A stretch of 64,000 nt of DNA from assembly GCF_030684315.1 (NCBI RefSeq), contig NC_081355.1:25259316-25323315 (forward strand), written 5' to 3'. A program made the translations under genes and the position numbers. Every line of letters begins with the position of its first letter. The first letter of the stretch is position 1. Origin of the DNA: Stegostoma tigrinum. Taxonomy: Eukaryota. The notes below the pieces were generated by a model. It did no database searches and was not told where the DNA came from. It was given only the letters and a program-made list of their open reading frames with translations. Of the stretch, positions 24,495 through 47,045 are shown one piece after another.

Positions 24495-26149
24495 TAAGCT
24501 GAAAGTAGTGTTCGGATTCATTCATGTAATGTTCATTTATGTAATGAAATGACAAAATAAGAGGATATCCGGACCTCTTCCAGCAGCCAACAAAGCTCTA
24601 AGATGACTTCCCTGCTAACCATACCTTCCAGAGCCATTGTTTTATGTTCAAAACTGTCTTTTGGACTCTCTGAACATAATAGGTGGGTACCATTTCTTTG
24701 TTAGGACAGTTAGCAACTGGGAAAGGAAATCTTGATGCAAACTTGAGAAACACATTTGGACAGTTGTGCTTCTGACAATTGCAGTTAGGAGGGACTTGTC
24801 AGATGAGGACAGGGATTTTTGGTTAGTCCATTTGAAACAAAGATGTTTGTTTTGTATCTGCCCTTTGGTGAGTATTGATCAAGTATTAGCAGCCTGTGAA
24901 TGGGGCCTAAAACTGGAACTTCTGGCTTAGAGGTACGGACACAACCCATTGAGCCACTAGACATCCATTGAAGGAGAGGTTACTCTAATTTCTACTCATG
25001 ATTGTGGGTTTTTAAATTTTTCATAGGGTTTTATAACCATGAAAAACTTCCATGCCAAGTAAATGCCAGTAATACCCAGTAAAATCTGAAGCAGTGTAAC
25101 CAGTTAGCAATTTGCAGTCCATTGTCATCCTAGTTGATTGAGATTAGGTTGGAAATTTACCATCAGTCTATAGCTATCAGAAATTCATCTTAATTGGCAG
25201 AACATTCAGCAGACATGAAAAGTTATCACTTTATGTCCTCTGTTTCCAGACAATTGATCCACGAGTTGTTTTTCCCCTTTCTCCTTTACTTTGAAAAACA
25301 TAATTTTTGCAGAGATTTGTCTTTTTTGTCTGTGTGTAAGCAAGTGTAATATTAGGGGGTGTCGTTTTAATTACAGATCACTTTTTAAGAGATACCCAGC
25401 ATTTTTCATTTACTTTAAGAGTAAGTTTTGTAATGAATGGATTATTTTGATTTTATCAAAGAATCCTAATAGACAGTTATTTTTGATTGTGGCACTAAAG
25501 TGAAGCAATAGGCTATTTTGGCAGTTGAATCAACAAATGCTGATAATATTGCTGGTGGAGCAATAGATCTTGATTGTAAGATATAGAAGTAGATTTAGGC
25601 CATTTGGTCGATCAAGCTTTCTCCATTATTCGATATGTTTCTCAATCCCATTCTCCTGTCTGCTACCCATAACCTTTGATCCCCTTATTAATTATCAGCG
25701 CATTGCTCCCTTCTGAATCATGACAAATGTTATTCCTTCATGTCATTAGAAATTTCTGGGTTTTCAATATAATTCACTCTTAAGATGTGCCGTGTTATTT
25801 TACATTACCGAGTTAACAAATGCCATACCACAGCATTCATCAAGTACAAGTTAGAATACAACTCCAGTTGGAGAAGCATACCCAATTATTTTCCAACTAG
25901 CTAGCATTTGTATACAAGGTGTCTTTGAGATATTTTTGTACCCACTTGGTCAGAAATGTTATTATACTGGAACAGGTGGGACTTGAACCTGGGCCCCCTG
26001 GTTCAGAGTTAGAAACATCACCCAAGCACCATGACAGCTCTTCAAGGTGGCTTTGACTATTGTTTCTCCATAGCAGGCAAATTTTAGGAAACTATATCGA
26101 ACAAACACTGTAGAAACCTGGTGATCTTTGAGAGTAATGTAACAAGTAG

Positions 26150-27054: not shown

Positions 27055-27285
27055 AGAGAGATAATGGGAACTGCAGATGCTGGAGAATCCAAGACAACAA
27101 AATGTGAGGCTGGATGAACACAGCAGGCCAAGCAGCATCCCAGGAGCACAAAAGCTGACGCCTCGGGCCTAGACCCTTCATCAGAGAGCCTCTCTGATGA
27201 AGGGTCTAGGCCCGAGGCGTCAGCTTTTGTGCTCCTGGGATGCTGCTTGGCCTGCTGTGTTCATCCAGCCTCACATTTTGTTGTC
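27055..27285. mobile_element. Non-autonomous PLE fold-back element with mirrored A-to-G changes
   Basis: Perfect inverted arms centred at about 27189; exact TSD AGGGAAGAGGGACTG at 27040-27054 and 27286-27300. Confidence 0.95.
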
Positions 27286-28362
27286 AGGGAAGAGGGACTG
27301 GTTGGTTTTCATTTAAGGAGAGTTAGTGAGCTTCGGAGCTAACCAATGTACAAAACATCCCTTAATATACAATAATTCCCTGAATTGTTTAATGAATCTG
27401 TTTCTGCTCTTTGTTTTCTATCTATCAGTAAATATGCATAAATTGTAAGAATGCACTGCCCTGGCATTCACATTATGTTTACTTCTTTGTAGCAATTAAG
27501 GAAAACTGAACAAAAATATTCAGGATTTAGTTGATTTATAAATGATGATAATTGTAGATAATTGTGTTTGGTATTAAAGCATTAGATCAAGCCAGCAGAG
27601 CTTCGAAGGAATGAACAGAGTAGAAGATGATGTGTGAAACCAATCAGAGAGGATTCTTGTGGCAAACACAACATTGTAACTGTAATGACAGATCCTTTTG
27701 TTAGACGATGAATTGGCAGGAGCAAGAGGACATCACAGTCACAGGGTGCTGCTGAAATTTATTGGAACGATACCAAGGATGATGGGTTTCAATTGTGCAG
27801 AGAGTCAAAAGCTGATGAGTTTGTTCTTGTTAGAACAGAGAAATTAAAATAGAGATTTTACAGGAATCTTCACAATGTGTTTTGATAGAATGATGAAATC
27901 AAAACTATTTTCATTGATAGGATGCTCAATAACTATAAAAACACAGAATTAACGCTATTGGTTCAAGAACCAGAGGAAAGTGAGAAACATTCTTCTTTTA
28001 GACAATGAGTTATTGTGATCTGAAGTGCAATGCAGATGGAATCAGATTCATCAGTAATTTCAAGAAAAGGATGATCAAATTCATTATATTTTACTGTATA
28101 CTTCAAAATGAAAAAGAAAGTAGGAATGTGAGGAAAGAATAAACATGTCTTACCAATTACATAATTCCCATGTTGTCAACTTTTACTGTTACACAATTTG
28201 GCTTTGTAGCTGGATAAGTTTTAGAAGGGTGCTGAAAGTTGTTGGGCAGCTGTTCCTGATGACTTCCAGCGTGTCCAAGGCTGACCATTATGTAGTGAAG
28301 GATAATATTTTGGGCATGTCTTGTACGTGCTGGAAACATGTACACTGGCCAGATCATAATGT

Positions 28363-28451
28363 CATAGAACATAGAACAGTACAGCACAGAACAGGCCCTT
28401 CTGCCCACAATGTTGTGCCGACCATTGATCCTCATGTATGCACCCTCAAAT
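28363..28451 (-). mobile_element. Very short young CR1 3' end
   Basis: Near-identical reverse complement of the 3' UTR starting at about 40583; flanked by AATGTCA repeats. Confidence 0.85.
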
Positions 28452-28549
28452 GTCAGTGGATGAAATGCAGATTCTATCCATTAGATCACATCAATCACTT
28501 TAATGCTCACAGCATTTCTTAAACCTGTATACCTGACTGGAGTTACTTA

Positions 28550-28780
28550 TAGAGTCACAGCAAGGAAATAGACCTTTCAGTCCAACTCATCCAAGTTGAC
28601 CAGATATCCTAAATTAATCTAATACCATTTGCCAGCATTCACCTATATCCCTCTAAAGCCTTCCTATTCACATACCCGTCCAGATGCCTTTTAAATGTTA
28701 TAGTTGAACCATCTCTACCACTTCCTATGGCAGCTCATTCCATTCACACATCACCCTCTGTGTGAAACAAGTTGCCTCAA
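28550..28780 (-). mobile_element. CR1 3' fragment
   Basis: Same family as 5855-6010; reverse strand encodes FHTEGDV/QRV-type end of ORF2. Confidence 0.7.
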
Positions 28781-28939
28781 ATTGTCATTTCAATCAAAAT
28801 GGAGTGGTGCTGGAACTTTGAAAGGACTTACATGATTTGGAAAGACTTCTAATAGCAAATTGCATGCAGTCAAGGGTGCTATTGATGTAGTTACCTTTAG
28901 ACTGAAGAATAAAAACTGGAGCAGAAAGGAGAAACTATT

Positions 28940-29690
28940 CAAGGATGCAAAAGGGGGCCTCTTCTCAGAAGGAGACCACACTCACTTAGCAATCTGAGAG
29001 AAGACTTTGCCATCTTAACCTCAGCCAGGAACAATGCCTATGATGGTTGCTTTCCACCAAAAAGATGGTCATAGATGAGATACTTGAGCAACATGTATCT
29101 TCTCCAAGCAAGACAAGGGTGATACTGCCAGTGGCTGGCAAAGTCATCATGACTTTCACTTTCAACCATCACTATTGTCCCCAGGTTGGTGCCAGAAGCG
29201 TTATCAATGGAATGCTTCTGCGAAATCTCTGAGGCCTCGTGTGTCAGAAAAGGGGACATCACTGTTTTTTCTCTATGCAGAGAAGGGGAGTTAGTTGGGG
29301 TCTTCCCCATTGAGTTGGCAGCCAACCTTCCACGACACTGGGGTAATGCATCTACACGGGGAGACAAACCAGGACCAGAAGGGCTTCCATTCCCTGATAA
29401 TGAGGTTGATGTGTGACTACGCATTCTAGTAGTGGCAACAATACTTTCATCTTCGAGTAATGATACCAGCACCCATTTCTAGCTACCCCACACATGCTTG
29501 CTAGCCCAGTAAACTCCTTGCATATTGACAGTGTATCTACAATGACAACCATGGTGTAACTAGAAACATTGTGCAGTTCACTGATAGAGGACCATTTTGG
29601 AGCCCTTCATGGCATATTATCTGATTTACCCATGTTCTGTTCTGTACTGCAGAACATTGCCATCACGAGGTTGGCACCAGGGCATCAGTG
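28940..29690 (+). pseudogene. Harbinger/PIF DDE transposase (HARBI1-like) remnant
   Basis: Collinear motifs LPVAGKVIMTFTF (about 29124), KGFHSLIMRLMCD (about 29379) and CSVLQNIAITR (about 29638); deletions and frameshifts. Confidence 0.75.
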
Positions 29691-31039
29691 ACCATCTCTG
29701 GGAAAGAAGAAAAAGAACAGGAGGCATTCAGAACAACAGCAACTGAGATGTGTTGTCCATAATCATCTAATAAGACTTATGTTCCTGTATGAAAAGGATT
29801 TCCATTGTTGCTTCACATTTCCCCATCCTTATGTTGCAAATCATTTCAGCATTGTCTGTCTTAAAACTCTGATATAAAACTACAAAAAAACACAAAACAA
29901 CCATTCCGCGTCAATTTTGTACCAGCAGCATTTCTAATAATACAAACAATGCTCAAGTATTTACCCTTGTACTTTTCTCTTTCTAGAAGTGCATTTGCCT
30001 GGCTTGATGCTCTTATGCAGTGCTAGACTAGGACTGTAGCACGGCTGCTTTTTCTCTTTATCAGGAAGACTACTTTTGGCCTTGAAGGATGGTTTTGAAC
30101 CACTCTGAGCCCTGAGGAAGAATATTTGAAATACAGTATCTCTGCTTGGGTGACAGCAGTCTGGGCTGGTCTGCAACAGAAGGGACAGTGGTGGAATAGC
30201 TGTGAATGCTGTCACAGAGAGAGAGGACACTAGGTTCTTGCATCATGGAGACTGTGTCACTTCCCTGGGCAGCTAGATCGAGTAATCTGCTAAAGCACAG
30301 ATTGAGTGCAGTTAAGTCTCCTCTAGCTTTTTAAAACACAAAGGCAATAAGCTAGGTTTGCATGGATCTCATGATCTTACTCTGAGCTTGGCCCACTATA
30401 GTCTTCAGATGTTCGGTTGATTCTACATGTCCTGAAATGGAATCTGAGATGCTGGCCATCTGATGGTTTGTGACGCCTTGACCTTTGAACATTCTCTTGG
30501 AGTTAGCTATCATTAGAATCAGAGAATAGTTGGACAGCACAGAAGGAGGACCATTTGACTTGTTGTATCTGTGCCATGTTTCCACAGCAATTCTGGGTGG
30601 ATGGACACCCATCTCTGCACTTTCAATTTCCTTTCAATAATCAAGAAACTCAACAGCGTAAAAAGTCAACTGATAAAACATAGTCAAACTAGTAAGTATC
30701 CATTATGGCCCATGGAATGGCTGTATCATCCATCAAGCTTCTCTCCACATGCAAACACTTCTTCCACAGAAGGTCCCTCCATGGTCAATGGCTACACTCT
30801 TCTTGAGGTCACCACTCAAGCAACTTGGCATCAGCAAAGCATCAGCCTCAAAATAATATCATGCTTGCTCTTTGCTCAGCTCAGGCAACATTTCAGGTCT
30901 CGAAATATGTATTTTAGAAGCTGAGGGACAGTTAGGAGTTGAGTTTCTGGAAGATCCATTTTTGCTGATAGTAATGCATCTTACATTTCTTTACAGGCTT
31001 TTTAACACTGACATAGAACCAGGCATCGTCTGGGTCTTT

Positions 31040-31937
31040 AATACAGTGTGAAGCTGGAGTACCACCACAGGCCAGGCAGCATCAGAGGAGCAGGAAGGTT
31101 GACGTTTCGGGTCTGGACCTTCTTCAGATATGGGGAGGGGAAAGGGAGCTCTGAAATAAGTAGAGAGAGGATGGGTGGGGCTGGAGAAACTAGGTGGGAT
31201 GGCAATAGGTGAGTGCAGGTAGGCAGTGATGGGGATTGGTCAGTGAAGTGAGCGGAGCGGATAGGTGCTAGAGAAGACGGACAGGTTAAGGAAATGGGGA
31301 TGAGAGGGAGGTAAATAGGAGAGAAGACGCACAGGTCAAGGAGGCGGAGATGAGAGGGAGGCTTGGTCATGGGATGAGGCTGGGCTGGGGAGATTTTGAA
31401 TCTAATAAAAGCCACACTGAGACCATTGGACTGTAGGTTCCCCAGGTGGAATATAAGGTGCTGCTTCTTCAGTTTCCGGGTGGCGTCGTTGTGACACTGG
31501 AGGAGGCCCAGAATGGACATGTCATTCAGGGAGCGGGAGGGGGAATGGAAGTGGTTTGCGACTGGATGGTGTTGTCGTTTGTTGCGAACTGAGCGCAGGT
31601 GCTCTACAAAGCAGTCTCTGAGCCTCTGCTTGGTCTCAGTGATGTAGAGATCCCATCCTTGACCTGTCCATCTTCTCTCCCACCTATCTGCACCTCCAAC
31701 CTCACTGACCAATCCCCACCATTCCTACCTGCACTCACCCATCACCATCCCACCTACCTTCCCCAGCCCCACCCCTCCTCTCCATTTATTTCATAACTCC
31801 TTTCCCCCTCCCTCATTTCGGAAGAAGGCACCTGAACCTAAATGTCAACATCCCTGCCCCTCTGATGCTGCCTGGCCTGTTGTGTTCCTCCAGCTGCACA
31901 CTGTATTACCTCTGACTCAAGCATCAGTAGTTCTTAC
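31040..31937 (-). mobile_element. Older PLE copy with inversion (GIY-YIG fragment and two opposed terminal repeats)
   Basis: Minus strand LYITETKQRLRDCFVEHLRSV...PVANHF; inversion junction at about 31650; TSD CATC(G/T)TCTGGGTCTTT at 31024-31039 and 31938-31953. Confidence 0.9.
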
Positions 31938-32050
31938 CATCTTCTGGGTCTTTGCTGTTTTTAGTGCACAGGATTTTTAGCACTACTTTACTGGTAGGCG
32001 GCTTCTGCATTTTAGCATCCTTTTTAGTTCAGAAAAGCAATGAATCTTTG

Positions 32051-32390
32051 GGGAGGAGATGGTCAAGTGGTATTATTGCTGGACTGTTAATCCCGAGACC
32101 CAGATAATGTCTTGGGGATCTGGGTTTGAATCCCACCATGGCAGATGGTGGAATTTGAATTCAAACTCAATTTTTAAAAAAAATCTAGAATTAAGAGTCT
32201 AACGATGACCATGAAGCAATTGTCAGGAAAAGCCCATCTGGCTCACTGATGTCCTTTAGGGTAGGAAACAGCCATCCTCACCTGATCTGCCCTGCATGTA
32301 GCTCCAAACGCACAATGTGGTTGACTCTTAACTGCCCTCTGGGCAATAAATACTGGTCTAGCCAGTAAAGCCCTCAGACTATGAGTGAAC
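32051..32390 (+). mobile_element. tRNA-derived SINE with CR1-like 3' tail
   Basis: A/B-box-like TGGTCAAGTGG and GGTTTGAATCCC; tail GGGCAATAAATACTGG shared with the second CR1-clade family. Confidence 0.75.
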
Positions 32391-32653
32391 ATAGAAAAGT
32401 CCTTTAGGACTGCTTTTGAGCACAAGGTCTTTTGTTATGCTTGACAGGCAGGCAGTCTCTGTGCCTTCGTTTGTGTTTTTTTCAGCATAGAAAGAGGGAC
32501 AGGGAGCTTGTGGTGGCGGTGAGCACTGCAGTGTAAATGTGACAGTGACAGGGGATGTTTACAGGTGGTAAGATGGGACTTCATGGCTAAAAGGACGGAA
32601 TTGGGAGCTCTTCCAGATGTGGTAAAAGTCAAGCAGGCCCTGGTTACTCTGGT

Positions 32654-32788
32654 ATAACAAAGTGTGGAGCTGGATGAACACAGCAGGCTAAGCAGCATCT
32701 TAGGAGCACAATGTTGCTTGGCCTGCTGTGTTCATCCAGCTCCACAATTTGTTATCCCGGATTCTAAAGCATTTGCAGTTCCCGTTAT
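32654..32788. mobile_element. Non-autonomous PLE fold-back element lacking the hammerhead
   Basis: Inverted arms; TSD CCCTGGTTACTCTGGT at 32638-32653 and 32789-32804. Confidence 0.9.
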
Positions 32789-34003
32789 CCCTGGTTACTC
32801 TGGTCTCTAGATGGGAGAGTTGTAGTGATAGCAAGGTCTTAGAAACCTCCAGGGTAATGGACCTCGGGGAAGAGCATGCATTTAATACTGATGTGAACTG
32901 AGATAAGGGAAGCAGAAGAATCATCAAAGTCATCAGGACCTCAAAACAAAAAAAGGGAATGTGAAGGAGAGTGAAGTTAGTGGGTTACAATTGGAGCCTG
33001 CAATGAACACTCATTAACAAAAGGTTGGAACCTCAACTTTTCAGATCAAACGTCAATTGCAGAATGCGTTAACAAAATAGTTGGGGCCACATGTAAAATG
33101 CAAGGACTAAGTTTACTTTGTGGGGGTAGAATTAGCAACATTCTTTTTGAGCCCTGAAAAAAACAGTTGCAGTAATCATGCCTTTACTGATTGAGGAGTG
33201 CTACCCATTGGCCTTCTGATCTCACTCCATAAAATCGCTTCAGAATCATACAGTCCCAACAGTGTGGAAACAGACTATTTGTCCCAATACGCCCACAATG
33301 AAAACCATTATCACTGTGACATGAAGAGTCCACCTTCACTCAAGCTCCAGTACTCCAAGGGACAACACATAATCCGTTGATATATTTTCCAGTTATGAAG
33401 ATGTGCAACTAAATTCTGTACCTATATTAAACAACAAAATCCATCAACTATGTTGTTTTAATAAACACATTTTTGGTTTACTATCAACGCAAAACATATT
33501 CCATAAGGATGTAATAATTGGTTAACAAGCAGAGTCAGCAACATAGAAACACAAATGTCTAGTCCTCTAAAAATCCCTAAAATATACATGCAAACAAACA
33601 CATACTTCAGGAAAAGATAAAACAAAAATTCGCTGTAGCAATTGGCATTCTGACGAAAATTTGACCAATGGGTTATTCTTGAAAGCAAGGAGATCAGCAT
33701 AAAATGCTCCAGAATCTTTCACTTTGATGTTCTGTTTGGTGTGATCTAGTCACAAGTCATGCACAATTGTCTTTGAAGTTTTGCAGCCACGGCTTGCTAA
33801 GGAAATACAGTATTGATGTTTCTTCAATTACTCTTTCAAGAGTATAAATAAGCTTCACCCTGAACTCAACAAAAGGATTTTCTTTTCAGAAATGAGTGAT
33901 CAACCGGGCAGCTTGTTTTTAGCATGCTTTTCTATAAAACATCTTATTCTAGCCATGTTTTTCTCCAGGTCAGCTAAACAAAACAAGCCCCTTTCCCAGC
34001 TAA

Positions 34004-34219
34004 CAAAGTGTGGAGCTGGATGAACACAGCAGGCCAAGCAGCATCTTAGGAGCACAAAAGCTGATGTTTCGGGCCGAGACCCTTCATCCGAAAAGCTTTA
34101 CCCAAAACATCAGCTTTTGTGCTCCTGAGATGCTGCTTGGCCTGCTGTGTTCATCCAGCTCCGCACTTTGTTATCTCGGACTCTCCAGCATCTGCAGTTC
34201 CCATTATCTCTGATACAAT
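34004..34219. mobile_element. Non-autonomous PLE fold-back element
   Basis: Inverted arms, right arm with extended tail (...ATCTCTGATACAAT); TSD CCCCTTTCC(C/A)AGCTAA at 33988-34003 and 34220-34235. Confidence 0.9.
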
Positions 34220-34994
34220 CCCCTTTCCAAGCTAATCACTTTTCAAACCTGCCCCAACAAGAGGCCTACTACAAAGCAAGCTGTTAACACTAGTCAAGTT
34301 ATTAGTAGGAAGCCTTGTTAAAAGAAGTACCACAGGTATCTCCACAAAACTTGAAATAAGTCAATTTGCCACAATTTTTAATCCTTAAGTCCTCAATGCA
34401 ATATTAATCTTTGTAACACTTGTACCTGTGGAGAAATAAAAGACCACTTTTAAACTTGTCTCGGGGTAAAATATGAACACAGCAAAAATACTTTTAAAAA
34501 TACTCATTCACAATCATTTTCATACTCTCTGTACATGTAACCTATACAAGTATCTCTGATAACTACTTAGTATGTCGACAATTCAAGCAAGGTTACATAG
34601 TTGACAAAACATCCATGATGACATTGTTCACCTGGTGGGAAAACAAATTTTATTAGATATTGCTGTAATAGAAATGCCCACCAAAACGGTGTGGCATTTT
34701 TGCTTTTAAAATTTTCACACACAAAGGCTGATGGGGTTCTGATGAAGAGTCACTGAACTTAAACTGTTACTTTTGCTTTCTCCTCACAAGCATTATTAGT
34801 TCTTATAAATAATTAGACCATTGCTCATGTAATTAGATATAAACCATTGCCACACATTGCTGCTAAGTAAAACTCTAATCCCCTACGTACAAATAGAGAA
34901 AATAGGGTATTGACAAAGGTATAAAAGAACTGCAAAGTCAATTCAGTAACTTTTGCTTCCCAGTTCTGATGTTAATATGATCCTGTCTCACCTA

Positions 34995-36185
34995 GCTTGG
35001 TTGATTGGTTTATTATCACATGTACCAAAATATGGTGGAGAGCTTCGTTTACGAGTGATACGGGTAGATCATAGTAAAGGTGTACAGATCAAAAAGACTT
35101 ATTCAGAGGCATACAGGTTACATTGCACAGGGTGTGCGCTTGGTGAGATCAATATTAGCAAGATCAATGTGATTTGAGGCTAGAGAGTCCATTCATCAGT
35201 CTGATAATGGCTGGGAAGAAGCTGTTCCTGAACCTGCTCATGCGTGTGTTCAGGCTTCTGTATCTTCTGCCTATGGAATAGGTTGTAGGAGATCATTACT
35301 GGGGTGTGATGGATCTTTGATGATGATGGTAGCTTTTCCACAGCAGCGAGAAGTGTAAATGGAGTCCATGGATAGAAGGTTGGCTTCTGTGACGGTCTGG
35401 GCTTTGCACGCTACCTCCTATAGTTCCTCACAGACCTGGGCAGAGCAGTCACGGTACCAGGCCATTACTGGACAGTATGTTTTCAATGGTGCATCTGTAG
35501 AAGTTGGTGAGGAACCTATTTGATGGGTCAAACTTCCCGAGCTGCCTGAGGAAGGAGAGACGTTGTTGTGCCTTCTTGACTGTTGCTGCGGGGAAGTCCT
35601 GAACAGGTTGTCAGTTGCCATCACTCCAAGGAACTTGATGTTTTTCACCCTCTCGACCTCAGTTCCATTGATGTAGATGGGGGCGTGTTCACCTTTTTTC
35701 TGAAGTTGATGATCTGTTCTTTAGTTTTGCTAATGTTGAGAGACAGATTGTTTTTATTGCACCACGTCACCAAGCCTTCTGTCTCCCTTCTGTGTTTTGA
35801 CTTGTCATTGTTAGATATCCATCCCTTTATGGTGGTGTTGTCAGTGAACTTGTAGATGCCGTTCATTTGGAATTTGGAAACACAGTTGTAGATGTTCAGG
35901 GAGTACAGCACAGGGCTGAGGATACATCCTTGGAAGACACCCAGTATTGAAAGTTATTGTGGAGGAGGCGCAGTTACCTATCCTCATTGATTGTCGTCTG
36001 TGGGTCAGAAAGCTAAGGATCCAGTTGCAGAGGTCAGAGCTGAGACCAAGGTCACAGAGTTTTGAGATCAGTCTGGAGGGGATAATAGTGTTGAAAGCAG
36101 CGTTGTAGTCAATGAACAGGAGTCTGAAATAGGTGTCCAGATGTTCCAGGGATGAGTGCAGGGTTAGGGATTTGGCATCCTCTGT
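34995..36185 (-). mobile_element. Rex1/Babar LINE 3' fragment
   Basis: [10 protein letters not shown]...[18 protein letters not shown]...WCNKNNLSLNISKTKEQIINFRK is typical of Rex-Babar RT; tail AATAAACCAATCAACCAA. Confidence 0.85.
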
Positions 36186-36844
36186 ACTAGCCCTTGATGT
36201 TCAGTTGTCCATCTATGGAAGCTTTCATTTGTTTCTAAGAAGTACAGAACAACTGATCCATTTGAAAAATGTCACTGCTGTATCAATTCAAAAGTTACAG
36301 CTTTCAGCAACTACTGCAGGAGAGGTAATTGATTTTCTTCAAGTTGAAAGTATTTTTATTGCATAGAACAGCCAGCTTCTGCTGGAGGGAAAAACAATAC
36401 ACATCTTTGTGACTCTGTCTCTTTGAACCTGCCTCTATAATTTTCGCCTTGTTGAAACTTGCTCAATTAGCTGAAAACCAGTTAGTTTCATTTGTAAATC
36501 ACTCCTTGCTCCTAACTTTTTGTTCATTGAAGGAACCAATAGCCGCAAAAATTTTAGGTTCAATAGGCATCATATTCCTCACTTTGAAAATATGTCACTA
36601 TCATGGCAAAACCTTGTTTCTTAGACAGTTATTTTTCCTTACATTCCACAGATTTAAAGACACAAAAACAAAAACACACAGTTCTTACATGTCTCCATCC
36701 TCAAGGGAAAAGAAACGCCATTTCAAAAATGTGTTTTATTATAAACATTTAAAGCACTACCTCGATACATGATTTTCATCCAATAATTCTTTCTCCCCCT
36801 CTTTTATACAAACTTAAACAGTCTTAGAATTTTGAAAATTTTAA

Positions 36845-37190
36845 CCAATCTAACATTTTACACTTGGGCTAATGCATCCACAATATTATCTTTTCCATTA
36901 ATATGAACACTTTTTATGTTTAATAGTTGAAAGCAAAGGGCCTCATGAATAATCTTGCAACCAATTTGGGAAGTTTTCAATGAAAGCTTTGATTATGATC
37001 AGTGTGTCTTAACATTTTCTTGTTTCCATGTTCGATATAGACCGCAAAGTGCTGAAGAGCTAACAACAATCCCAAAGCCTATTTTGCTATTGTGAAAAAC
37101 TTCTTTGGATACTGTTTCTTAGAGAAGCACCCCATTAACTTCTCTTCCGGACTCATCATTATGTGACAAGACTGCACCCACCTTGGGAAT
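36845..37190 (-). pseudogene. Gypsy RNase H domain remnant (end of pol)
   Basis: Minus strand VGAVL..., ALGLLLALQHFAVYIEHG, HTDHN and GKDNIVDALA. Confidence 0.8.
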
Positions 37191-37571
37191 TGTCTAAGTC
37201 TGCTTCTGCCTCATCGTCATTATCTCTTTCATCCTCCACTGTCCTTACCATGCAACAAACATGCACTTCCTTATCATCCTCCTTATTGTATTCATGCTTC
37301 AATGTATTGAAGTAACATTCAATTCTTCTTCCCATGATCTGGGCATCAATTAGATAATTTTGATAATATACATTACTAATTATTTTGGCTGTCATATGTT
37401 GACCACTGAGCTGTGCCTTTCATGCTTTACCTTGTAAAGATAATAATACGAACACTTCATCCCCAGTTTGACATGTTTGGGATTTGGTATTTTTGTTAGC
37501 CCGTTGTTTCACAATTGTTTGTGGTGCCCTTAGGTGTTCTTGAGATATTTTGCAGGCTCCTGTGAGTAGCA

Positions 37572-37862
37572 GTCAGAACACAGATGCCTTCTTCACTATC
37601 CTATCTACCTGTGACTCCACTTTTGAGGAACTATGAACCTGCACTCTCAGCCCTCTTTGTTCAGCAACACTCTCCAGGACCTTACCGTTAAGTCCTGTCT
37701 TGATTTGCCTTTCCAAAATGCAGCACCTCACATTTATCCAAATTAAATTCCACCTGCCAGCCTTCGGCCCATTGGCCCATCTGATCAAGATCCTGTTGTA
37801 TTCTGAGGTAACCCTCTTGGCTGACCAGTACGCCTCCAATTTTGCTGTTATTTGCAAACTTG
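37572..37862 (-). mobile_element. CR1 internal fragment
   Basis: GKVLESVAEQRGLRVQVHSSSKVESQVDRIVKKA. Confidence 0.8.
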
Positions 37863-38079
37863 CAATTGCTCTGTCTCTTTCAAATCACCGAGCCTTTCTG
37901 TGAATACCAGAGAAGCTACAAGTTTTGCTCTTCCAAATCATTCTCGAGGGCTAAATCAACTATTCCTATAAGCTCGTAGAGAGAGATAATGGGAACTGCA
38001 GATGCTGGAGATTCCAAGATAATAAAATGTGAGGCTGGATGAACACAGCAGGCCAAGCAGCATCTCAGGAGCACAAAAG

Positions 38080-38111
38080 CTGACGTTTCGGGCCTAGACC
38101 CTTCATCAGAG
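38080..38111 (-). ncRNA. Minimal hammerhead ribozyme motif
   Basis: Reverse complement CTCTGATGAAGGGTCTAGGCCCGAAACGTCAG; intact core. Confidence 0.75.
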
Positions 38112-38277
38112 AGGGGGATGGGGGGAGGGAACTGGAATAAATAGGGAGAGAGGGGGAGGCGGACCGAAGATGGAGAGCAAAGAAGATAGGTGGAGAGGGT
38201 GTAGGTGGGGAGGTAGGGAGGAGATAGGTCAGTCCAGGGAAGACGGACAGGTCAAGGAGGTGGGATGAGGTTAGTAC

Positions 38278-39096
38278 GCCCTTGACCGCGTCTCCCGCAT
38301 TTCCCGCGACACATCCCTCACACCCCGCCCCCGCCACAACCGCCCCAAGAGGATCCCCCTCGTTCTCACACACCACCCTACCAACCTCCGGATACAACGC
38401 ATTATCCTCCGACACTTCCGCCATTTACAATCCGACCCCACCACCCAAGACATTTTTCCATCCCCACCCCTGTCTGCTTTCCGGAGAGACCACTCTCTCC
38501 GTGACTCCCTTGTTCGCTCCACACTGCCCTCCAACCCCACCACACCCGGCACCTTCCCCTGCAACCGCAGGAAATGCTACACTTGTCCCCACACCTCCTC
38601 CCTCACCCCCATCCCAGGCCCCAAGATGACATTCCACATTAAGCAGAGGTTCACCTGCACATCTGCCAATGTGGTATACTGCATCCACTGTACCCGGTGC
38701 GGCTTTCTCTACATTGGGGAAACCAAGCGGAGGCTTGGGGACCGCTTTGCAGAACACCTCCGCTCAGTTCGCAACAAACAACTGCACCTCCCAGTCGCAA
38801 ACCATTTCCACTCCCCCTCCCATTCTCTTGATGACATGTCCATCATGGGCCTCCTGCACTGCCACAATGATGCCACCCGAAGGTTGCAGGAACAGCAACT
38901 CATATTCCGCCTGGGAACCCTGCAGCCATATGGTATCAATGTGGACTTCACCAGTTTCAAAATCTCCCCTTCCCCCACTGCATCCCTAAACCAGCCCAGT
39001 TCATCCCCTCCCCCCACTGCACCACACAACCAGCCCAGCTCTTCCCCCCCACCCACTGCATCCCAAAACCAGTCCAACCTGTCTCTGCCTCCCTAA
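38278..39096 (+). CDS. PLE ORF C-terminus, 5'-truncated: Cys linker and GIY-YIG endonuclease
   Basis: Open frame with CNRRKCYTCPH and NVVYCIHCTRCGFLYIGETKRRLGDRFAEH; matches the 43794-44765 copy. Confidence 0.9.
   Translation, partial: ALDRVSRISRDTSLTPRPRHNRPKRIPLVLTHHPTNLRIQRIILRHFRHLQSDPTTQDIFPSPPLSAFRRDHSLRDSLVRSTLPSNPTTPGTFPCNRRKCYTCPHTSSLTPIPGPKMTFHIKQRFTCTSANVVYCIHCTRCGFLYIGETKRRLGDRFAEHLRSVRNKQLHLPVANHFHSPSHSLDDMSIMGLLHCHNDATRRLQEQQLIFRLGTLQPYGINVDFTSFKISPSPTASLNQPSSSPPPTAPHNQPSSSPPPTASQNQSNLSLPP
38966..39080 (+). repeat. Three imperfect ~39-bp tandem units at the PLE ORF end
   Basis: CCCACTGCA..AACCAGCCCAG repeated, encoding PTASLNQPSSS / PTAPHNQPSSS / PTASQNQSN. Confidence 0.8.
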
Positions 39097-39097
39097 C

Positions 39098-40681
39098 TGA
39101 TGTACTGAAAATTTTGTCAAACATTAAGATTGACAAGTCGCCAGGCCCGGATCAGATTTGTCCTCGGCTGCTTTGGGAAGCGAGAAATGCAATTGCTTCG
39201 CCACTTGCGAAGATCTTTGCATCCTCGCTCTCCACTGGAGTCGTACCTGAGGACTGGAGAGAGGCAAATGTAATTCCTCTCTTCAAGAAAGGAAATAGGG
39301 AAATCCCCGGCAATTATAGACCGGTAAGTCTCACGTCTGTCGTCTGCAAGGTGTTAGAAAGGATTCTGAGGGATAAGATTTATGACCATCTGGAAGAGCA
39401 TGGCTTGATCAAATACAGTCAACACGGCTTTGTGAGGGGTAGGTCATGCCTTACAAACCTTATCGAGTTTTTTGAGGATGTGACTAGTAAGGTTGATGAG
39501 GGTCAAGCTGTGGATGTGGTGTATATGGACTTCAGTAAGGCATTTGATAAGGTTCCCCATGGAAGGCTCATTCAGAAGGTCAGGAGGAATGGGATACAGG
39601 GGAACTTAGCTGCTTGGATACAGAATTGGCTGGCCAACAGAAGACAGCGAGTGGTAGTAGAAGGAAAATATTCTGCCTGGAAGTCAGTGGTGAGTGGGGT
39701 TCCACAGGGCTCTGTCCTTGGGCCTCTACTGTTTGTAATTTTTATTAATGACTTGGACGAGGGAATTGAAGGATGGGTCAGCAAGTTTGCAGACGACACA
39801 AAGGTCGGAGGTGTCGTTGACAGTGTAGAGGGCTGTTGTAGGCTGCAGCGGGACATTGACAGGATGCAGAGATGGGCTGAGAGGTGGCAGATGGAGTTCA
39901 ACCTGGATAAATGCGAGGTGATGCATTTTGGAAGGTCGAATTTGAAAGCTGAGTACAGGATTAAGGATAGGATTCTTGGCAGCGTGGAGGAACAGAGGGA
40001 TCTTGGTGTGCAGATACATAGATCCCTTAAAATGGCCACCCAAGTGGACAGGGTTGTTAAGAAAGCATATGGTGTTTTGGCTTTCATTAACAGGGGGATT
40101 GAGTTTAAGAGTCGTGAGATCTTGTTGCAGCTCTATAAAACTTTGGTTAGACCGCACTTGGAATACTGCGTCCAGTTCTGGGCGCCCTATTATAGGAAAG
40201 ATGTGGATGCTTTGGAGAGGGTTCAGAGGAGGTTTACCAGGATGCTGCCTGGACTGGAGGGCTTATCTTATGAAGAGAGGTTGACTGAGCTCGGTCTCTT
40301 TTCATTGGAGAAAAGGAGGAGGAGAGGGGACCTAATTGAGGTATACAAGATAATGAGAGGCATAGATAGAGTCGATAGCCAGAGACTATTTCCCAGGGCA
40401 GAAATGGCTAGCACGAGGGGTCATAGTTTTAAGCTGGTTGGTGGAAAGTATAGAGGGGATGTCAGAGGCAGGTTCTTTACGCAGAGAGTTGTGAGAGCAT
40501 GGAATGCGTTGCCAGCAGCAGTTGTGGAAGCAAGGTCATTGGGGTCATTTAAGAGACTGCTGGACATGCATATGGTCACAGAAATTTGAGGGTGCATCCA
40601 TGAGGATCAATGGTCGGCACAACATTGTGGGCTGAAGGGCCTGTTCTGTGCTGTACTGTTCTATGTTCTATGTTCTATGTT
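39098..40681 (+). mobile_element. Young 5'-truncated CR1 LINE inserted in the PLE
   Basis: Uninterrupted ORF2 half, (GTTCTAT)n tail and flanking CTAAC duplication; the empty site is visible in the 43441-44768 copy. Confidence 0.95.
39114..40589 (+). CDS. CR1 ORF2 reverse transcriptase domain (endonuclease missing)
   Basis: 491-aa open frame with KSPGPD, NYRPVSLTS, YMDFSKAFDKVPH, GVPQGSVLGP and KFADD. Confidence 0.95.
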   Translation: MSNIKIDKSPGPDQICPRLLWEARNAIASPLAKIFASSLSTGVVPEDWREANVIPLFKKGNREIPGNYRPVSLTSVVCKVLERILRDKIYDHLEEHGLIKYSQHGFVRGRSCLTNLIEFFEDVTSKVDEGQAVDVVYMDFSKAFDKVPHGRLIQKVRRNGIQGNLAAWIQNWLANRRQRVVVEGKYSAWKSVVSGVPQGSVLGPLLFVIFINDLDEGIEGWVSKFADDTKVGGVVDSVEGCCRLQRDIDRMQRWAERWQMEFNLDKCEVMHFGRSNLKAEYRIKDRILGSVEEQRDLGVQIHRSLKMATQVDRVVKKAYGVLAFINRGIEFKSREILLQLYKTLVRPHLEYCVQFWAPYYRKDVDALERVQRRFTRMLPGLEGLSYEERLTELGLFSLEKRRRRGDLIEVYKIMRGIDRVDSQRLFPRAEMASTRGHSFKLVGGKYRGDVRGRFFTQRVVRAWNALPAAVVEARSLGSFKRLLDMHMVTEI

Positions 40682-40907
40682 CTAACCGGTTCTTCCTCTC
40701 ACCCATCCCTTCCTCCCACCCCCAGCCGCACCCCCAGCTACCTACTAACCTCATCCCACCTCCTTGACCTGTCCGTCTTCCCTGGACTGACCTATCCCCT
40801 CCCTACCTCCCCACCTACACCCTCTCCACCTATCTTCTTTGCTCTCCATCTTCGGTCCGCCTCCCCCTCTCTCCCTATTTATTCCAGTTCCCTCCCCCCA
40901 TCCCCCT

Positions 40908-40939
40908 CTCTGATGAAGGGTCTAGGCCCGAAACGTCAG
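40908..40939 (+). ncRNA. Minimal hammerhead ribozyme motif
   Basis: CTGATGA (40910-40916), A, stem II GGGT-CTAG-GCCC, GAAA (40930-40933), CGTC; predicted cleavage after C40937. Confidence 0.75.
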
Positions 40940-41899
40940 CTTTTGTGCTCCTGAGATGCTGCTTGGCCTGCTGTGTTCATCCAGCCTCACATTTTATTAT
41001 TCCTATAAGCTACCTATTGACTACGCCAACAGTTACCATTCCAGCCATTAGGTCACCCTCTAGGTGTATCTAAAATAAAAGCATTTACTCCCTGCTAACA
41101 CCATGTACTAAAACTTTGGCAATCAAGTTGCTCACATGAGGATAATTAGTTTGAGTGGCTCCTGTAATTTTGTGCATGACTATAGAATTACTTGTCATTT
41201 GAGGAATATCTTGTTGACAAGAATTCCCTTTGGTTCTCATGTACCTTGTTTACTTGCCTTGCACACACAACAGTTTATATTTGATCTCACTGCTGTTGTC
41301 AGAGGCACAGCTTAGTATGTGGTACTGCTGGCTGGTTGTACTTCTTTCTCTGCACTGCCTTTACGTATGCCTATACCTCACAACTTCCAGAAATTTGTAC
41401 AAACATGTCCCACCTTATGACAATGGTAAAACTTCAGACATCTCTTCCACCCTTAGCACTCTCGTTTCATGCCTGAGGAAGTCTTTCGGGAATCTTCACA
41501 ACTGTCCCTTCTTGTCCCTGGTTATTTTTCTTATTTCTTGTATTTGTGATTGTGATGAGAAACGGATTGGGTTTGTGGACCAGGTTACAATTGTCAAACA
41601 CTTCAGCTGCCTTTCTCGTTGTTGCAAGCTCTTGGTTTTCTTTATGAGATTCTATCAATTTATACAATGAAGTCTTAAATTCTTCTCGGAAAAGGATCTC
41701 ATGTGCAGTCTCTACCGTCAATGCCTTCACCCAATTAGCAATGTTATTTTACTTTACCCTCTCAAATTCTATATAAGTCTGCTCTAGCTACTTAAGGGTA
41801 TACAACATTCCTGCCTGCCAGTCACAGGGAGAAACTTGTATGCACTAAGAATAACCTTAATTGCCACTTTGTAATCTATACCCAAACCAAGCTATTCCA

Positions 41900-43305
41900 C
41901 TTCGGTTACATCACAGGCATCTACATGACAATGTGGAAAATTGTCCAGATATGTCCTGTACACAAAAGCATCCAATACGGCCAATTACTGCCTCATCAAT
42001 CTACTCTACTGGTTATCAGTAAAGTGATTGAAGTTGTTAGCAATAATGCTATCATGTAGCGTCCGTTCAGCAATAATCAGCTCAGTGACTCCCACTTTGG
42101 GTTCTGCCAGGGCCACACTAATGCTTTGGTTCAAAAATAGACAAAAGAACTGAATTCCAGAGGTGAGGTGAGAGTGATAACCCTCAAAATCAAGGCTGCA
42201 TTTGACTTTGTATGGGTTTGAGGATTCCTAGCAAAACTGGAATCAATGGGAAAGAGGGAGCAGAATCTCCACTGGTTGCACTCATACCTGGCGCATAGGA
42301 AAATGGTTGTGGTTTTGGAAGGTCAGTCATCTCACCTCAAGACATTCCTGCATGAGTTCCTCTGGATAGTGTCCTAGGACCAATCATTTTCAGCTGCTTC
42401 ATCAATGACCTTCCATCCATCATAAGGTCAGAAGTGGGAATGTTTGCTGATGATTGCACAGTGCTCAACACCATTCACAACTCCTCAGACACTGAAGCAG
42501 ACCATGTTCAATTGCAACAATATCTGGACAAGATTCAGGTTCGGTCTTACAAGTGGCAAGTAACATTCATGCTACACAAATGCCAGGCAATGACCGTCTC
42601 TGAAAAGAGACAATCTAACCACAGCCTCTTGACATTCAATGGCGTTACCATCACTGAATCTTCAATTGTCAACACCCTGGGGGTTCCCATTGACTGGAAA
42701 CTCAATAGGACTCACCACATAAACATAGTGGCTACAAGAATAGCTCAGAGGCTTGGAATACTGCTGCAAGTAACTCCTCCAAGCCTGCCCACCATCTGCA
42801 AGGTATAAGAAAGGAGTGTGGTGGAACTTGCTTGAAAGAGGCAGACCTATCAACACAGAAGAAACTTGACACCATCCAGGACCAAGGAGCCCACTTCATT
42901 GGCACCACAGCCACAAACATCCAGTCCCTCCACCACCAACTCTCAGTTTAAGCAGGATGTACTATTTACTAGATGCACAGCAGAAATTCACCAAATATCC
43001 TTAAATTGTGCCTTCCAATCCTGCAACAACTTCTATCTAGAAGGGCAAGAGTAGCAGAAAAATGGAAATACCACCTACAGGCTACATGCTAAGTTATTCA
43101 ATATCCTTACTTGGAAATATATTGTTGTGCTTTCACTTTTGCCTTGATAAGATCCTGGCATGCCATTCCTAAGGGTGTTGAGCTAATCTACAGCAGTTAA
43201 GGACTGCAGCAATTGAAGAAGACAGCTCACCACCACTGTTTCAAGGACAACTTAGAATAAATGCTGGCTTACTTGTGACACTCACCTCCTACACATGAAA
43301 AAAGA
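41900..43305 (+). mobile_element. CR1-clade LINE (second family), decayed RT and 3' end
   Basis: MFADDCTVLNTIHNSSDTEA...KWQVTF; homologous to 6015-7478. Confidence 0.85.
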
Positions 43306-43539
43306 TGAAACCTCCTCAGAAAGCAAGCCATTACTTCATCAGCCATGTCTGACAGCCTGCTGTACATGAGTAGTGCTCAGCCTCCTCTTGCCATCTTGCA
43401 TACTAAGCTATCTTTGAAAAGAAATCAGAAATACCTCTGCGAGAGATGATGGGAACTGCAGATGCTGGAGATTCCAAGATAATAAAATGTGAGGCTGGAT
43501 GAACACAGCAGGCCAAGCAGCATCTCAGGAGCACAAAAG

Positions 43540-43571
43540 CTGACGTTTCGGGCCTAGACCCTTCATCAGAG
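43540..43571 (-). ncRNA. Minimal hammerhead ribozyme motif
   Basis: Same intact core as 40908-40939. Confidence 0.75.
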
Positions 43572-43793
43572 AGGGGGATGGGGGGAGGGAACTGGAATAA
43601 ATAGGGAGAGAGGGGGAGGCGGACCGAAGATGGAGAGTAAAGAAGATAGGTGGAGAGGGTGTAGGTGGGGAGGTAGGGAGGGGATAGGTCAGTCCAGGGA
43701 AGACGGACAGGTCAAGGAGGTGGGATGAGGTTAGTAGGTAGCTGGGGGTGCGGCTTGGGGTGGGAGGAAGGGATGGGTGAGAGGAAGAACCGG

Positions 43794-44765
43794 TTAGGGA
43801 GGCAGAGACAGGTTGGACTGGTTTTGGGATGCAGTGGGTGGGGGGGAAGAGCTGGGCTGGTTGTGTGGTGCAGTGGGGGGAGGGGATGAACTGGGCTGGT
43901 TTAGGGATGCAGTGGGGGAAGGGGAGATTTTGAAACTGGTGAAGTCCACATTGATACCATATGGCTGCAGGGTTCCCAGGCGGAATATGAGTTGCTGTTC
44001 CTGCAACCTTCGGGTGGCATCATTGTGGCAGTGCAGGAGGCCCATGATGGACATGTCATCAAGAGAATGGGAGGGGGAGTGGAAATGGTTTGCGACTGGG
44101 AGGTGCAGTTGTTTGTTGCGAACTGAGCGGAGGTGTTCTGCAAAGCGGTCCCCAAGCCTCCGCTTGGTTTCCCCAATGTAGAGAAAGCCGCACCGGGTAC
44201 AGTGGATGCAGTATACCACATTGGCAGATGTGCAGGTGAACCTCTGCTTAATGTGGAATGTCATCTTGGGGCCTGGGATGGGGGTGAGGGAGGAGGTGTG
44301 GGGACAAGTGTAGCATTTCCTGCGGTTGCAGGGGAAGGTGCCGGGTGTGGTGGGGTTGGAGGGCAGTGTGGAGCGAACAAGGGAGTCACGGAGAGAGTGG
44401 TCTCTCCGGAAAGCAGACAGGGGTGGGGATGGAAAAATGTCTTGGGTGGTGGGGTCGGATTGTAAATGGCGGAAGTGTCGGAGGATAATGCGTTGTATCC
44501 GGAGGTTGGTAGGGTGGTGTGTGAGAACGAGGGGGATCCTCTTGGGGCGGTTGTGGCGGGGGCGGGGTGTGAGGGATGTGTCGCGGGAAATGCGGGAGAC
44601 GCGGTCAAGGGCGTTCTCAATCACCGTGGGGGGGAAGTTGCGGTCCTTAAAGAACTTGGACATCTGGGATGTGCGGGAGTGGAATGTCTTATCGTGGGAG
44701 CAGATGCGGCGGAGGCGGAGGAATTGGGAATAGGGGATGGAATTTTTGCAGGAGGGTGGGTGGGA
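43794..44765 (-). CDS. PLE ORF C-terminal 323 aa: RT thumb, Cys linker, GIY-YIG
   Basis: SHPPSCKNSIPYSQFLRLRRICS (PLE RT thumb) is in frame with RIPLVLTHHP, CNRRKCYTC and VY..YIGET; no stops. Confidence 0.92.
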   Translation of the reverse strand, partial: SHPPSCKNSIPYSQFLRLRRICSHDKTFHSRTSQMSKFFKDRNFPPTVIENALDRVSRISRDTSLTPRPRHNRPKRIPLVLTHHPTNLRIQRIILRHFRHLQSDPTTQDIFPSPPLSAFRRDHSLRDSLVRSTLPSNPTTPGTFPCNRRKCYTCPHTSSLTPIPGPKMTFHIKQRFTCTSANVVYCIHCTRCGFLYIGETKRRLGDRFAEHLRSVRNKQLHLPVANHFHSPSHSLDDMSIMGLLHCHNDATRRLQEQQLIFRLGTLQPYGINVDFTSFKISPSPTASLNQPSSSPPPTAPHNQPSSSPPPTASQNQSNLSLPP

Positions 44766-45572
44766 GCACAGAAATACCTCTGCACCATTTTGGCCAAATT
44801 TTCAGAGGCATGCATAAATTTCAGCAGCTCCCCATTGGGTCTTGGTTTAGACTCAGATATTTACTTGTCAGAATGCTTCTTGGTCTCAGAGGCCTTTTAT
44901 TTATTTCCAGCTATTTAAACTGATATTCTCTCTCGCTACTCTTTCCCTCAACTTAATTTCTAGATCTAAATTCTTAAATTCTCTTTATTTTTTACTTCTC
45001 GCTCTGAAGTGCTATGTCTTTTTCTTCCCCCTCCCCCTGCAGTGCTGTTTATCCTCCTTTTTCTGCTCTGTGCAATTCTTCTCTTTGAAGTCTAAGTTTT
45101 TAATTCCCATTTATTTTTCCCATTTAACCAGCTTTGCAATTGAATTCTTTCAATCTCTATTAACTCACCATCTGACTGGATTCACCATTCTTCCAATTCA
45201 AAAGTTGTGCTATTGCCTCAGTTACATTGCTGTCCTAGCCTTTATTTTTAGCTCTCATTCCGAATTCTCGGCCAAACCTTGGTTATTCTTGCAAGTCATT
45301 CAGGAATAAATTTCTGTGCAGAAAATTCTTAGTGTTTGCCAAAGCCATTTTGGTATAATACTGCTCAATAAACCTAACGTATTTCCTACAACCCTTCCAA
45401 ATATTGACACCCAGCTTTCAATTAAAGTTTGCATGAGGTATCCTATTGTGAGCACCAGTTATGTTCTGACCAATATTGAGGAGTGCGCTATTGCTCTAGT
45501 CCTACAACTTCACAGGTCACAACTTAGAATACTTTTTCTGTTTATCAAGAAAACCAATTAGGTAACTTATCC

Positions 45573-45706
45573 AAGGTAACAAGGCCTAGAGCTGGATGAA
45601 CACGGCAGGCCAGGCAGCATCAGAGGAGCAGGAAAGCTGAGTTTCGGGCCTCGACCCTCTACACCTTGTTATCTCAGATTCTCCAGCATCTATAGTTCCT
45701 ACTATC
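45573..45706. mobile_element. Non-autonomous PLE fold-back element
   Basis: Minus arm joined to a short plus arm with tail; flanking repeat TAGGTAACTTA at 45559-45569 and 45707-45717. Confidence 0.85.
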
Positions 45707-46569
45707 TAGGTAACTTACCTATTTCCTTTTTTAAACAAGATCTATTAGCTGAGCTTCTTAATAAATACTATTTTATCAAAACAAAACTTATTCAGTAAAT
45801 ATGCAAGAATCAGTCAAGATTGGTTTCCTGAAGAAAAATATACATTTTTCTCAGTGGGTATTCTTGAAGACAAAACAATCAAGTGTAGAATATTCTGGAG
45901 TTTATTGCTGCAAGGTTGTGGCTAATGTGATCAAGCCACTGAAAATGCAGGGTGGTCTATGCAGTTTGCCCTGACACCACCTTGTTTCCCTGAGTGAAAT
46001 CAATGGAGTGAGGTCCAATCACATATGTGGTAGCTATTGAATGTTCTGCTGGACCTGTATCTTCAAGGCAGTTGTGACTCTTTCCACAGAGATAATCAGG
46101 TGCTCACATGCCAGAGCCATGGTTGTAATGGAAACTGTTTGAAGGACTTGTCCATCTTTTATTTCAAAATCTACTAAATGCCTCTGGAACACCATCCTCA
46201 TGTTCTTTCACCACATCTTACAGGTTCAGCACTCCAATTATATTCAAGAACACCACTTTTCTTGGAGCTCTCAGTCTGGTTGTTAGTAGGCTTTTCCAAA
46301 AATGAAACAGAGGGAAGGACTGATTATGATGGAAACATCCGAGATCAGTTAGTTTTCATGCAGGAGTAGGAGAGGTGGTCCTCAATAAGGAGTACAAAGC
46401 TTAGAGAAAAGGAAGGGCTCATAGTTCCTGAAAATGAGGGGGATGTCAGACCCTGAATTGACACATGGTGGGTGATGCTGAGGGCTGTAGTCCATCATCC
46501 TCGGTGAGATGGATATTCAGTGGCAGAGTTAGAGTCAATGATATCTGTCTGAGTGTGAGTAGCAGAGAA

Positions 46570-47045
46570 AAGATGGAGACACTTATCTTTGTGGAATGTA
46601 GGATATCATTGACTTTCTTTCTGCACTGCTGGGTGTCCCTTTCCAGAGTGGGCACAACACTGACCTCTGCTGTTATCTCTGTCCAGGATGGCTGAGTCTG
46701 TTGGTGTAGCCTCTTGCTGCAGTCATTAGGTAAAAAGGCTGAGAGAGAGAAAATGGGAGCTGCAGATGCTGGAGAATCCAAGATAACAAAGTATGAAGCT
46801 GGATGAACACAGCAGGCCAAGCAGCATCTTAGGAGCACAGAAACTGACATTTTGGGCCTCTCTGATGAAGGGTCTAGGCCCGAAACGTCAGCTTTTGTGT
46901 ACCTAAGATGCTGCTTGGCCTGCTGTGTTCATCCAGCTTCATACTTTGTTATCTAGGTAAAAAAACTGACCCCTCATTACCCCATCTACCAGTAACTCAT
47001 CACTTTACTCTAGGAAGTGTGAAGCAAATTTCTTTTGCGCCACAT
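46570..47045 (-). pseudogene. Myb/SANT-like DNA-binding gene remnant of a Harbinger transposon
   Basis: WTEITAEVSVVPTLERDTQQCRKKVNDILHSTK is a trihelix/MSANTD-type pattern; interrupted by a PLE fold-back. Confidence 0.7.
46743..46953. mobile_element. Non-autonomous PLE fold-back element with intact hammerhead (46862-46889)
   Basis: Inverted arms share the variant CTTCATAC; TSD TAGGTAAAAA(GG/AA)CTGA at 46727-46742 and 46954-46969. Confidence 0.9.

Follow-up and report, generated by a model that had tools for sequence, protein, structure and literature searches.

We analysed a 64,000-nucleotide stretch of Stegostoma tigrinum DNA (NCBI RefSeq assembly GCF_030684315.1, contig NC_081355.1, positions 25,259,316 to 25,323,315 of the forward strand), here called the window. 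Self-comparison of the window revealed one repeat family at 13 insertion sites, which, judging by its sequence, is a Penelope-like element (PLE) with a C-terminal GIY-YIG endonuclease and a linker of the Neptune/Nematis type. Nine of the 13 copies are inverted, all of them head to head with their 3' ends outward and within target-site duplications (TSDs) of 11-16 bp. An earlier, sequence-only reading had noticed that in most of these copies one arm runs through a tail of about 37 nt, while the other stops at a fixed breakpoint before it. This asymmetry is real and largely as described, and it is a known hallmark of PLEs. In what follows, arm-end positions take the tail end of the copy at 43441-44768 as 0, and the tailed and tail-less ends are called site A and site B. 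The copies and their parts are listed here, with the open reading frame abbreviated as ORF and reverse transcriptase as RT.

43441..44768 (-): non-inverted, 5'-truncated, ORF-bearing, tailed copy, the position reference; TSD 15/15
37975..38276 (-): tailed arm of the young inverted insertion; site A end at +6, 5' end at -295
37981..38017 (-): 37-nt tail separating site B from site A
38080..38111 (-): minimal hammerhead-ribozyme-like motif from a pattern scan; predicted cut between 38082 and 38081
38277..39096 (+): 3' part of the ORF in the tail-less arm; CX4CxxC linker and GIY-YIG endonuclease; 5'-truncated, without core RT
40682..41000 (+): 3' terminus of the tail-less arm, which ends at site B (-38); final 3 nt common to the TSD
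27055..27285 (.): inverted copy, tailed on the left, with a right arm ending at site B; arms identical (0/96), common A>G changes; TSD 15/15
31040..31937 (.): old inverted copy, tail-less left arm bearing an endonuclease relic, tailed right arm; TSD 15/16
32654..32789 (.): inverted copy, left arm tail-less, right arm tailed; TSD 16/16
34001..34219 (.): inverted copy, left arm tail-less, right arm tailed (+7), 9-nt central filler; TSD 15/16
45570..45706 (.): inverted copy, left arm stopping 5 nt inside the tail, short right arm tailed; TSD 11/11
46743..46953 (.): inverted copy, left arm tailed, right arm tail-less; TSD 14/16
23522..23689 (.): exception, inverted copy in which each arm ends at site B; TSD 16/16
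24356..24495 (.): exception, left arm ending at -100, 1 nt beyond the predicted ribozyme cut, right arm tailed; TSD 14/15
58167..58292 (+): single short tailed copy; TSD 9/9
15460..15582 (+): short one-armed copy with the tail; TSD not clear
16837..16930 (-): short one-armed copy lacking the tail; TSD not clear
39097..40681 (+): nested LINE (long interspersed nuclear element; RVT_1), not PLE; inserted at the PLE stop codon, the PLE halves overlapping by 5 nt
12482..12683 (.): belongs to a second, related family; inverted and old; limits by eye, TSD uncertain

Even the longest copies in the window carry only the 3' part of the ORF, which Pfam matches weakly to GIY-YIG (E 7e-4), at 20.2 bits and so below the curated cut-off of 22.6. 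Membership in the PLEs is supported by several further features. Among proteins 568-2000 aa long, the ORF fragment has 48 relatives, the best of which matches 85% of it at about 50% identity; the RT family PF00078 is listed for 35 of the 48. Chiloscyllium punctatum provides the named relative with the greatest identity (65%, covering 40% of the query), which points to a cartilaginous fish as host. The ORF aligns at 44-52% with the C-termini of four longer RT-bearing relatives, and in this alignment the CCHH residues fall into place, C-x2-C lying between VYC and YIG and two conserved histidines after it. The C-x4-C-x2-C linker is present in the window ORF and in all four aligned full-length relatives. 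A CX2-5CxxC linker is described as a mark of Neptune and Nematis that Penelope/Poseidon lack (PMC8557442), so the family is not a Penelope/Poseidon member, although it works like the Poseidon element of Anolis carolinensis (PAc). The window copies are all 5'-truncated, with tblastn matches covering an 803-aa relative from residue 530 onward; because the RT core is missing, the sequence suggests a Neptune/Nematis-type element, with no choice between the two clades. Inverted or tandem pseudo-long terminal repeats (pLTRs) with a 30-40 nt tail at one end, a PLE feature, are found in the window family, and public contigs contain go-back joints to the tail end. Beyond the end of its relatives, the ORF continues for about 40 codons through three imperfect, Pro/Ser-rich 39-nt repeats (38965-39076, 43814-43925).

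Arm ends, pairing and 5' reach

The 22 arm ends fall into two clusters, 11 at site A (-8 to +7) and 10 at site B (-40 to -32), with a single outlier at -100. The 24-nt gap between the clusters contains no arm end; an equally large empty gap arose in 14 of 200,000 uniform draws, in a post hoc comparison that left the -100 end out. The ends in the window are thus bimodal. The 37-mer tail itself is exact at 37981-38017 (-) and has six matches in the window at up to three mismatches, compared with none in each of 100 shuffles. The tail-less ends reported earlier at 27285 (-37), 32654 (-38), 46953 (-37) and 31040 (-40) agree with the TSDs. Those at 34001 (-39) and 41000 (-38) are also correct, although their final 3 nt could equally belong to the TSD, but the arm placed at 45573 really ends at 45570, five nucleotides within the tail (-32). 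Calling the breakpoint fixed was therefore too strong, as it is a 9-nt window (-40 to -32) rather than a single base. The pattern of one tailed and one tail-less arm holds in 7/9 inverted copies, the exceptions being 23522-23689, where both arms end at the break, and 24356-24495, with its end at -100. Likewise, the ORF-bearing arm is the tail-less one in 37975-41000 and 31040-31937, but the non-inverted ORF copy at 43441-44768 is tailed.

Contigs of public sequencing runs supply a second view of these ends. Contigs from four of 21 listed runs (X3, X9, X12 and X14) were aligned on 37930-38276, with X3 contributing 178,880 contigs. Among the sites listed for X3, the two largest 3'-side loose ends lie 35 nt apart at 37982 (562 contigs) and 38017 (628 contigs), both with mixed flanks (agreement 0.39 and 0.38). 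The same two sites are among those listed for X9, which comes from another organism (13 and 7 contigs). The contigs support two preferred ends but fall short of a full end histogram.

How the two ends are combined within a copy appears to be constrained. Counting the second-family copy 12482-12683 and leaving aside the -100 copy, 8/9 scorable copies pair a tailed with a tail-less arm; under independent 50:50 choice, at least 8/9 has a probability of 10/512. A copy with two tailed arms was seen in none of ten, the second-family copy included. In addition, the tail-less arm extends further 5' in all eight asymmetric copies (192/40,320 permutations; sign test 0.008), and the second-family copy, with its left arm tailed and its right arm tail-less and reaching further 5', agrees with this order.

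The structure of the inverted copies also bears on how they arose. All nine central junctions are different, with 0-3 nt of microhomology (judged by eye) or the 9-nt filler, which argues that each inversion was made anew at insertion. In 7/9 inverted copies neither arm contains the other by at least 5 nt. Simply copying one arm from its partner is thus insufficient, as two templated events are required to supply both the tail and the 5' extension. In 6/9 copies the arms have 5' ends within 1-19 nt of each other. TSDs measure 14-16 bp in 9/11 cases, and 2/13 copies have no clear TSD. The young insertion 37975-41000 is flanked by a perfect 14/14 duplication (37961-37974 / 40998-41011), and its ORF arm at 38277..39096 matches the 43441 copy without a single difference over 821 nt. 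The window insertions show no clear target motif of an AT-rich or microsatellite kind. An AG motif (the first 3 nt of 7/22 TSD half-sites against a background of 0.137, P 0.023) was noticed post hoc and was not accepted.

The two arms of a copy were also said to share private variants. This is real but modest: the partner arm lies below the median distance in 14/14 comparisons and is the nearest arm in eight of the 14 (nine with one tie). The 24.4- and 45.6-kb pairs were excluded from these comparisons because their arm overlap is too short. The C38178/G40841 variant is present in both arms of 37975-41000, against the 43441 copy; these arms differ at 1/258 sites, and the C at the 38178 equivalent makes up about 7% of summed contig depth in X3 (by subtraction). 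The T of CTTCATAC occurs in both 46.8-kb arms, which differ from each other at 6/78 sites, and in 0/19 other arms. Old arm pairs diverge by 4-19%, and the 27.1-kb arms are identical (0/96) yet about 5% away from other young copies. Five of the six differences between 27055-27285 and the young copy are A>G in sense, against a background of 10/86; three of them occur in no other arm, two are common variants in X3, and two lie inside the ribozyme GAAA box. This one case hints that a single A-to-I edited RNA may lie behind both 27.1-kb arms.

Twin priming on one RNA and its alternatives

We propose that both target nicks prime reverse transcription of the same RNA, priming at site B giving the tail-less arm and priming at site A the tailed arm, a reading that we regard as evenly balanced between right and wrong. 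The endonuclease would first nick both target strands, as shown in vitro for an anole PLE, here with the stagger of 14-16 bp that the TSDs record. Synthesis would then start internally in the two regions where the arm ends cluster (site B, -40 to -32; site A, -8 to +7); internal initiation at two sites has been shown in vitro for the anole PLE (PMC11167929). The B-primed RT would lead, while the A-primed RT would trail it and displace the first cDNA, so the tailed arm would never extend further 5'. Finally, the two cDNA 3' ends would be joined, leaving the observed microhomology of 0-3 nt or a short filler, with repair filling in the second strands. Where only one nick primes, a single-arm copy would result. 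In its more specific form, which we think somewhat less likely than not, one PLE complex would carry two RTs in tandem on a single RNA, one per nick, at sites 35 nt apart, and the trailing enzyme would displace the first cDNA but never overtake it. Two RTs in tandem with the B-primed one ahead would be expected to give both the pairing and the 5' order.

The sequence-only reading had reached a similar place, and its parts fared differently. Two priming sites about 37 nt apart are borne out, at a spacing of about 35 nt, by the bimodal ends, the contigs of two organisms and published in vitro mapping on another PLE, but they are not new, since the in vitro two-site start is already in print (PMC11167929). 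Their use from opposite nicks fits the outward 3' ends and the TSDs of mostly 14-16 bp, from which it is inferred. Tail/break pairing and 5' reach speak for one RNA being copied twice, but the shared variants do not discriminate.

A number of observations weigh against twin priming on one RNA or limit what supports it. The 5'-reach order was recognised post hoc, is not significant in the six short copies alone (96/720 permutations) and is also predicted by a fold-back of the first strand. The nested break/break copy 23522-23689 and the -100 arm of 24356-24495 depart from the pairing. Two RNAs transcribed from one source locus, or gene conversion, would account for the shared variants just as well, and these variants do not separate one RNA from fold-back copying either. 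No conserved RNA structure was found at site A or B: a consensus fold of nine tailed arms showed compensatory change in 0/24 pairs, and the fold of the 3' 151 nt was no better than shuffles (z 0.29). For the anole PLE, no difference in start site between strands is reported, and that study does not address one versus two RNAs (PMC11167929). In X12 and X14 neither site is among those listed, X12 having matched chiefly the ribozyme core and X14, which may be an RNA run, having its listed sites at other places. The loose-end counts are for the top sites, with 664 further ones, some not counted, and they number contigs rather than insertions; X3 may come from the same source as the window; and at 38017 the loose consensus closes with six letters similar to an older tail start, so the 628 contigs may mix true ends with arms running a few bases on, some of them older tails that fail to align. 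Finally, X3 contains tail-to-tail joints in which a site A end meets a site B end directly, uninterrupted by host flank (37985/38017, 31 contigs; 6, 3 and 2 more in nearby rows), and which the twin-priming model leaves unexplained. Candidate causes are homing to an older tail, a sense RNA that primes itself, and a circular intermediate.

The strongest competitor, which we consider somewhat unlikely, is that the tail-less strand is made first, turns back and is copied, or that antisense RNA primes itself, with the tail difference explained either by endonuclease resolution or by a short cDNA begun at site A on the second nick. Both components are published: inversions in Adineta vaga are attributed to self-priming on an antisense template (PMC3846280), and the tail of 30-40 bp, which is often confined to one end, is ascribed to endonuclease-mediated resolution (PMC8557442). 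Such a fold-back predicts the longer 5' reach of the tail-less arm (8/8) and the variants common to arms, and it suits the closeness of arm 5' ends (1-19 nt in 6/9), the nested 23.6-kb copy and the nearly nested 27.1-kb copy; fold-back of the B strand together with a short A-primed cDNA is compatible with pairing and order alike. However, a tail cannot come from copying a tail-less strand, so 8/9 copies demand an extra step, two copies require loops of about 460 and 877 nt, and in vitro initiation at both sites makes trimming unnecessary (PMC11167929).

Twin priming could instead involve a dimer with two RNAs of the same source locus, each subunit picking site A or B. A dimer is predicted for the anole enzyme, and its start sites show no strand bias (PMC11167929); two templates would also account for overlapping arms without strand displacement, for shared variants and for the break/break copy. 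Yet free choice predicts tail/tail copies, of which 0/10 were seen, and no 5'-reach order, where 8/8 point one way. Two free RNAs thus fit pairing and order worse than tandem RTs or fold-back, and we think this version distinctly improbable. A ready-made palindromic master (MITE-like, that is, resembling a miniature inverted-repeat transposable element, or a read-through transcript), copied whole with gene conversion keeping its arms alike, would explain why the 27.1-kb arms are identical yet about 5% from other young copies, but is very hard to credit given 9/9 differing junctions, old pairs 4-19% apart and long, variable TSDs; together with chance repeats and assembly artefact, it was rejected on the differing junctions, the TSDs and the same ends in another organism's contigs.

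The hammerhead-like motif and neighbouring sequences

About 130 nt upstream of the tail end lies the hammerhead-like motif, which was recovered with the minimal features of PMC4209133. On inspection it has the core boxes, an extra base before stem II, G10.1-C11.1 and a palindromic helix III; Rfam returned no hits, this motif included. Among the 12 inserted-segment rows listed for X3 (with 143 more), four start at 38081, the first base past the predicted cut, and these segments join site A or the vicinity of site B at a summed depth of about 300. This provides a lead that ribozyme-cut RNA may be reverse transcribed in vivo. In the anole PLE study, no RNA-seq read ends were found at the ribozyme cut (PMC11167929). 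Go-back joints in the contigs return to site A or B, as expected of partial tandems, and 15 contigs jump from 38104 back to 37982, yielding short tandem units. A third boundary, on the 5' side, stands at 38110 (701 contigs in X3), the start of the ribozyme motif, and 6/22 window arms start at -127 to -133 (16930, 27188, 27189, 34091, 46857, 58167); an RNA 5' end and an RT stall are candidate causes.

Several smaller observations belong to the same region. The ribozyme start (38105-38111) and the site A region (tail end of 34101-34219) have a 7-nt direct repeat in common. Roughly 30 nt upstream of the motif, young and old copies alike carry a pyrimidine-rich run ending in CAG (40877-40887, 31142-31153), a possible splice acceptor. 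An ORF start between motif and tail was rejected, since by eye both ATG frames are short or are stopped in older copies. Searching with a 21-nt pattern gave no viral contig and one metagenome stretch with unrelated flanks, which we treat as a chance match.

The 572-aa RT ORF at 38871-40589 is part of the later-inserted LINE, not of the PLE. This LINE (39097-40681), which we take to be CR1-like, appears young, with an open RT frame and a short tandem 3' tail, and has older relatives near 1-840 and 50200-51570. The second, older PLE-like family is represented at 12482-12683, 14960-15030, 18407-18508 and 1787-1852. A 144-bp direct repeat, 96.5% identical, occupies 59661-59804 and 60708-60850.

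Relation to known systems

In L1 twin priming, the second nick primes a second cDNA, with microhomology at the junction and a TSD. L1 arms, however, do not overlap and one of them starts at poly(A), whereas the window PLE arms overlap in 9/9 inverted copies, both start near one 3' region and carry no poly(A). The closest parallel is PAc, whose purified protein nicks and extends both target strands and starts at two internal sites, the 30-40 nt tail being the sequence between them (PMC11167929). PAc also has an upstream hammerhead motif with the GAAACGUC^AG core found in the window family, but belongs to Penelope/Poseidon and lacks the CX4CxxC linker. That paper leaves the steps after initiation open and gives no model for inverted arms. 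Penelope of Adineta vaga has head-to-head inverted pLTRs with an optional 31-bp tail on one of them, but TSDs of 8-10 bp instead of mostly 14-16 bp (PMC3846280), and Penelope of Drosophila virilis likewise has an optional tail (a 34-bp repeat) and inverted pLTRs (PMC2377424); most window copies differ from both in being ORF-less palindromes of 130-230 bp. Neptune and Nematis elements share the C-terminal GIY-YIG with CCHH, the upstream CX2-5CxxC, a tail at one end and an inverted 5'-truncated copy (PMC8557442), but the microsatellite targeting was not seen in the window family.

Our search of literature listings found no proposal of twin priming for PLE inversions, although the 2005-2006 PLE reviews, which it did not cover, may hold one; how PLEs come to form their inverted and tandem copies has been described as still undefined (PMC8557442). 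The 5'-reach order, the lack of a two-tailed copy and the tandem joints at the predicted cut were not met in the PLE literature compared. The pairing and order rules are thus a modest, small-sample addition to the two-site pattern, whose tail and start sites were already known, but one that makes the mechanism testable.

The window family extends the two-site pattern to a PLE that is probably of the Neptune/Nematis type. If tandem loading of RTs is correct, it would amount to an overlapping form of twin priming in which tail, inversion and TSD come from one step, and, if the lead from the contigs holds, ribozyme-cut RNA would be one in vivo template, feeding tandem formation. With thousands of countable insertions, this PLE family offers a setting in which end pairing, 5'-reach order and ribozyme-cut joints can separate the one-RNA, fold-back and two-RNA models.

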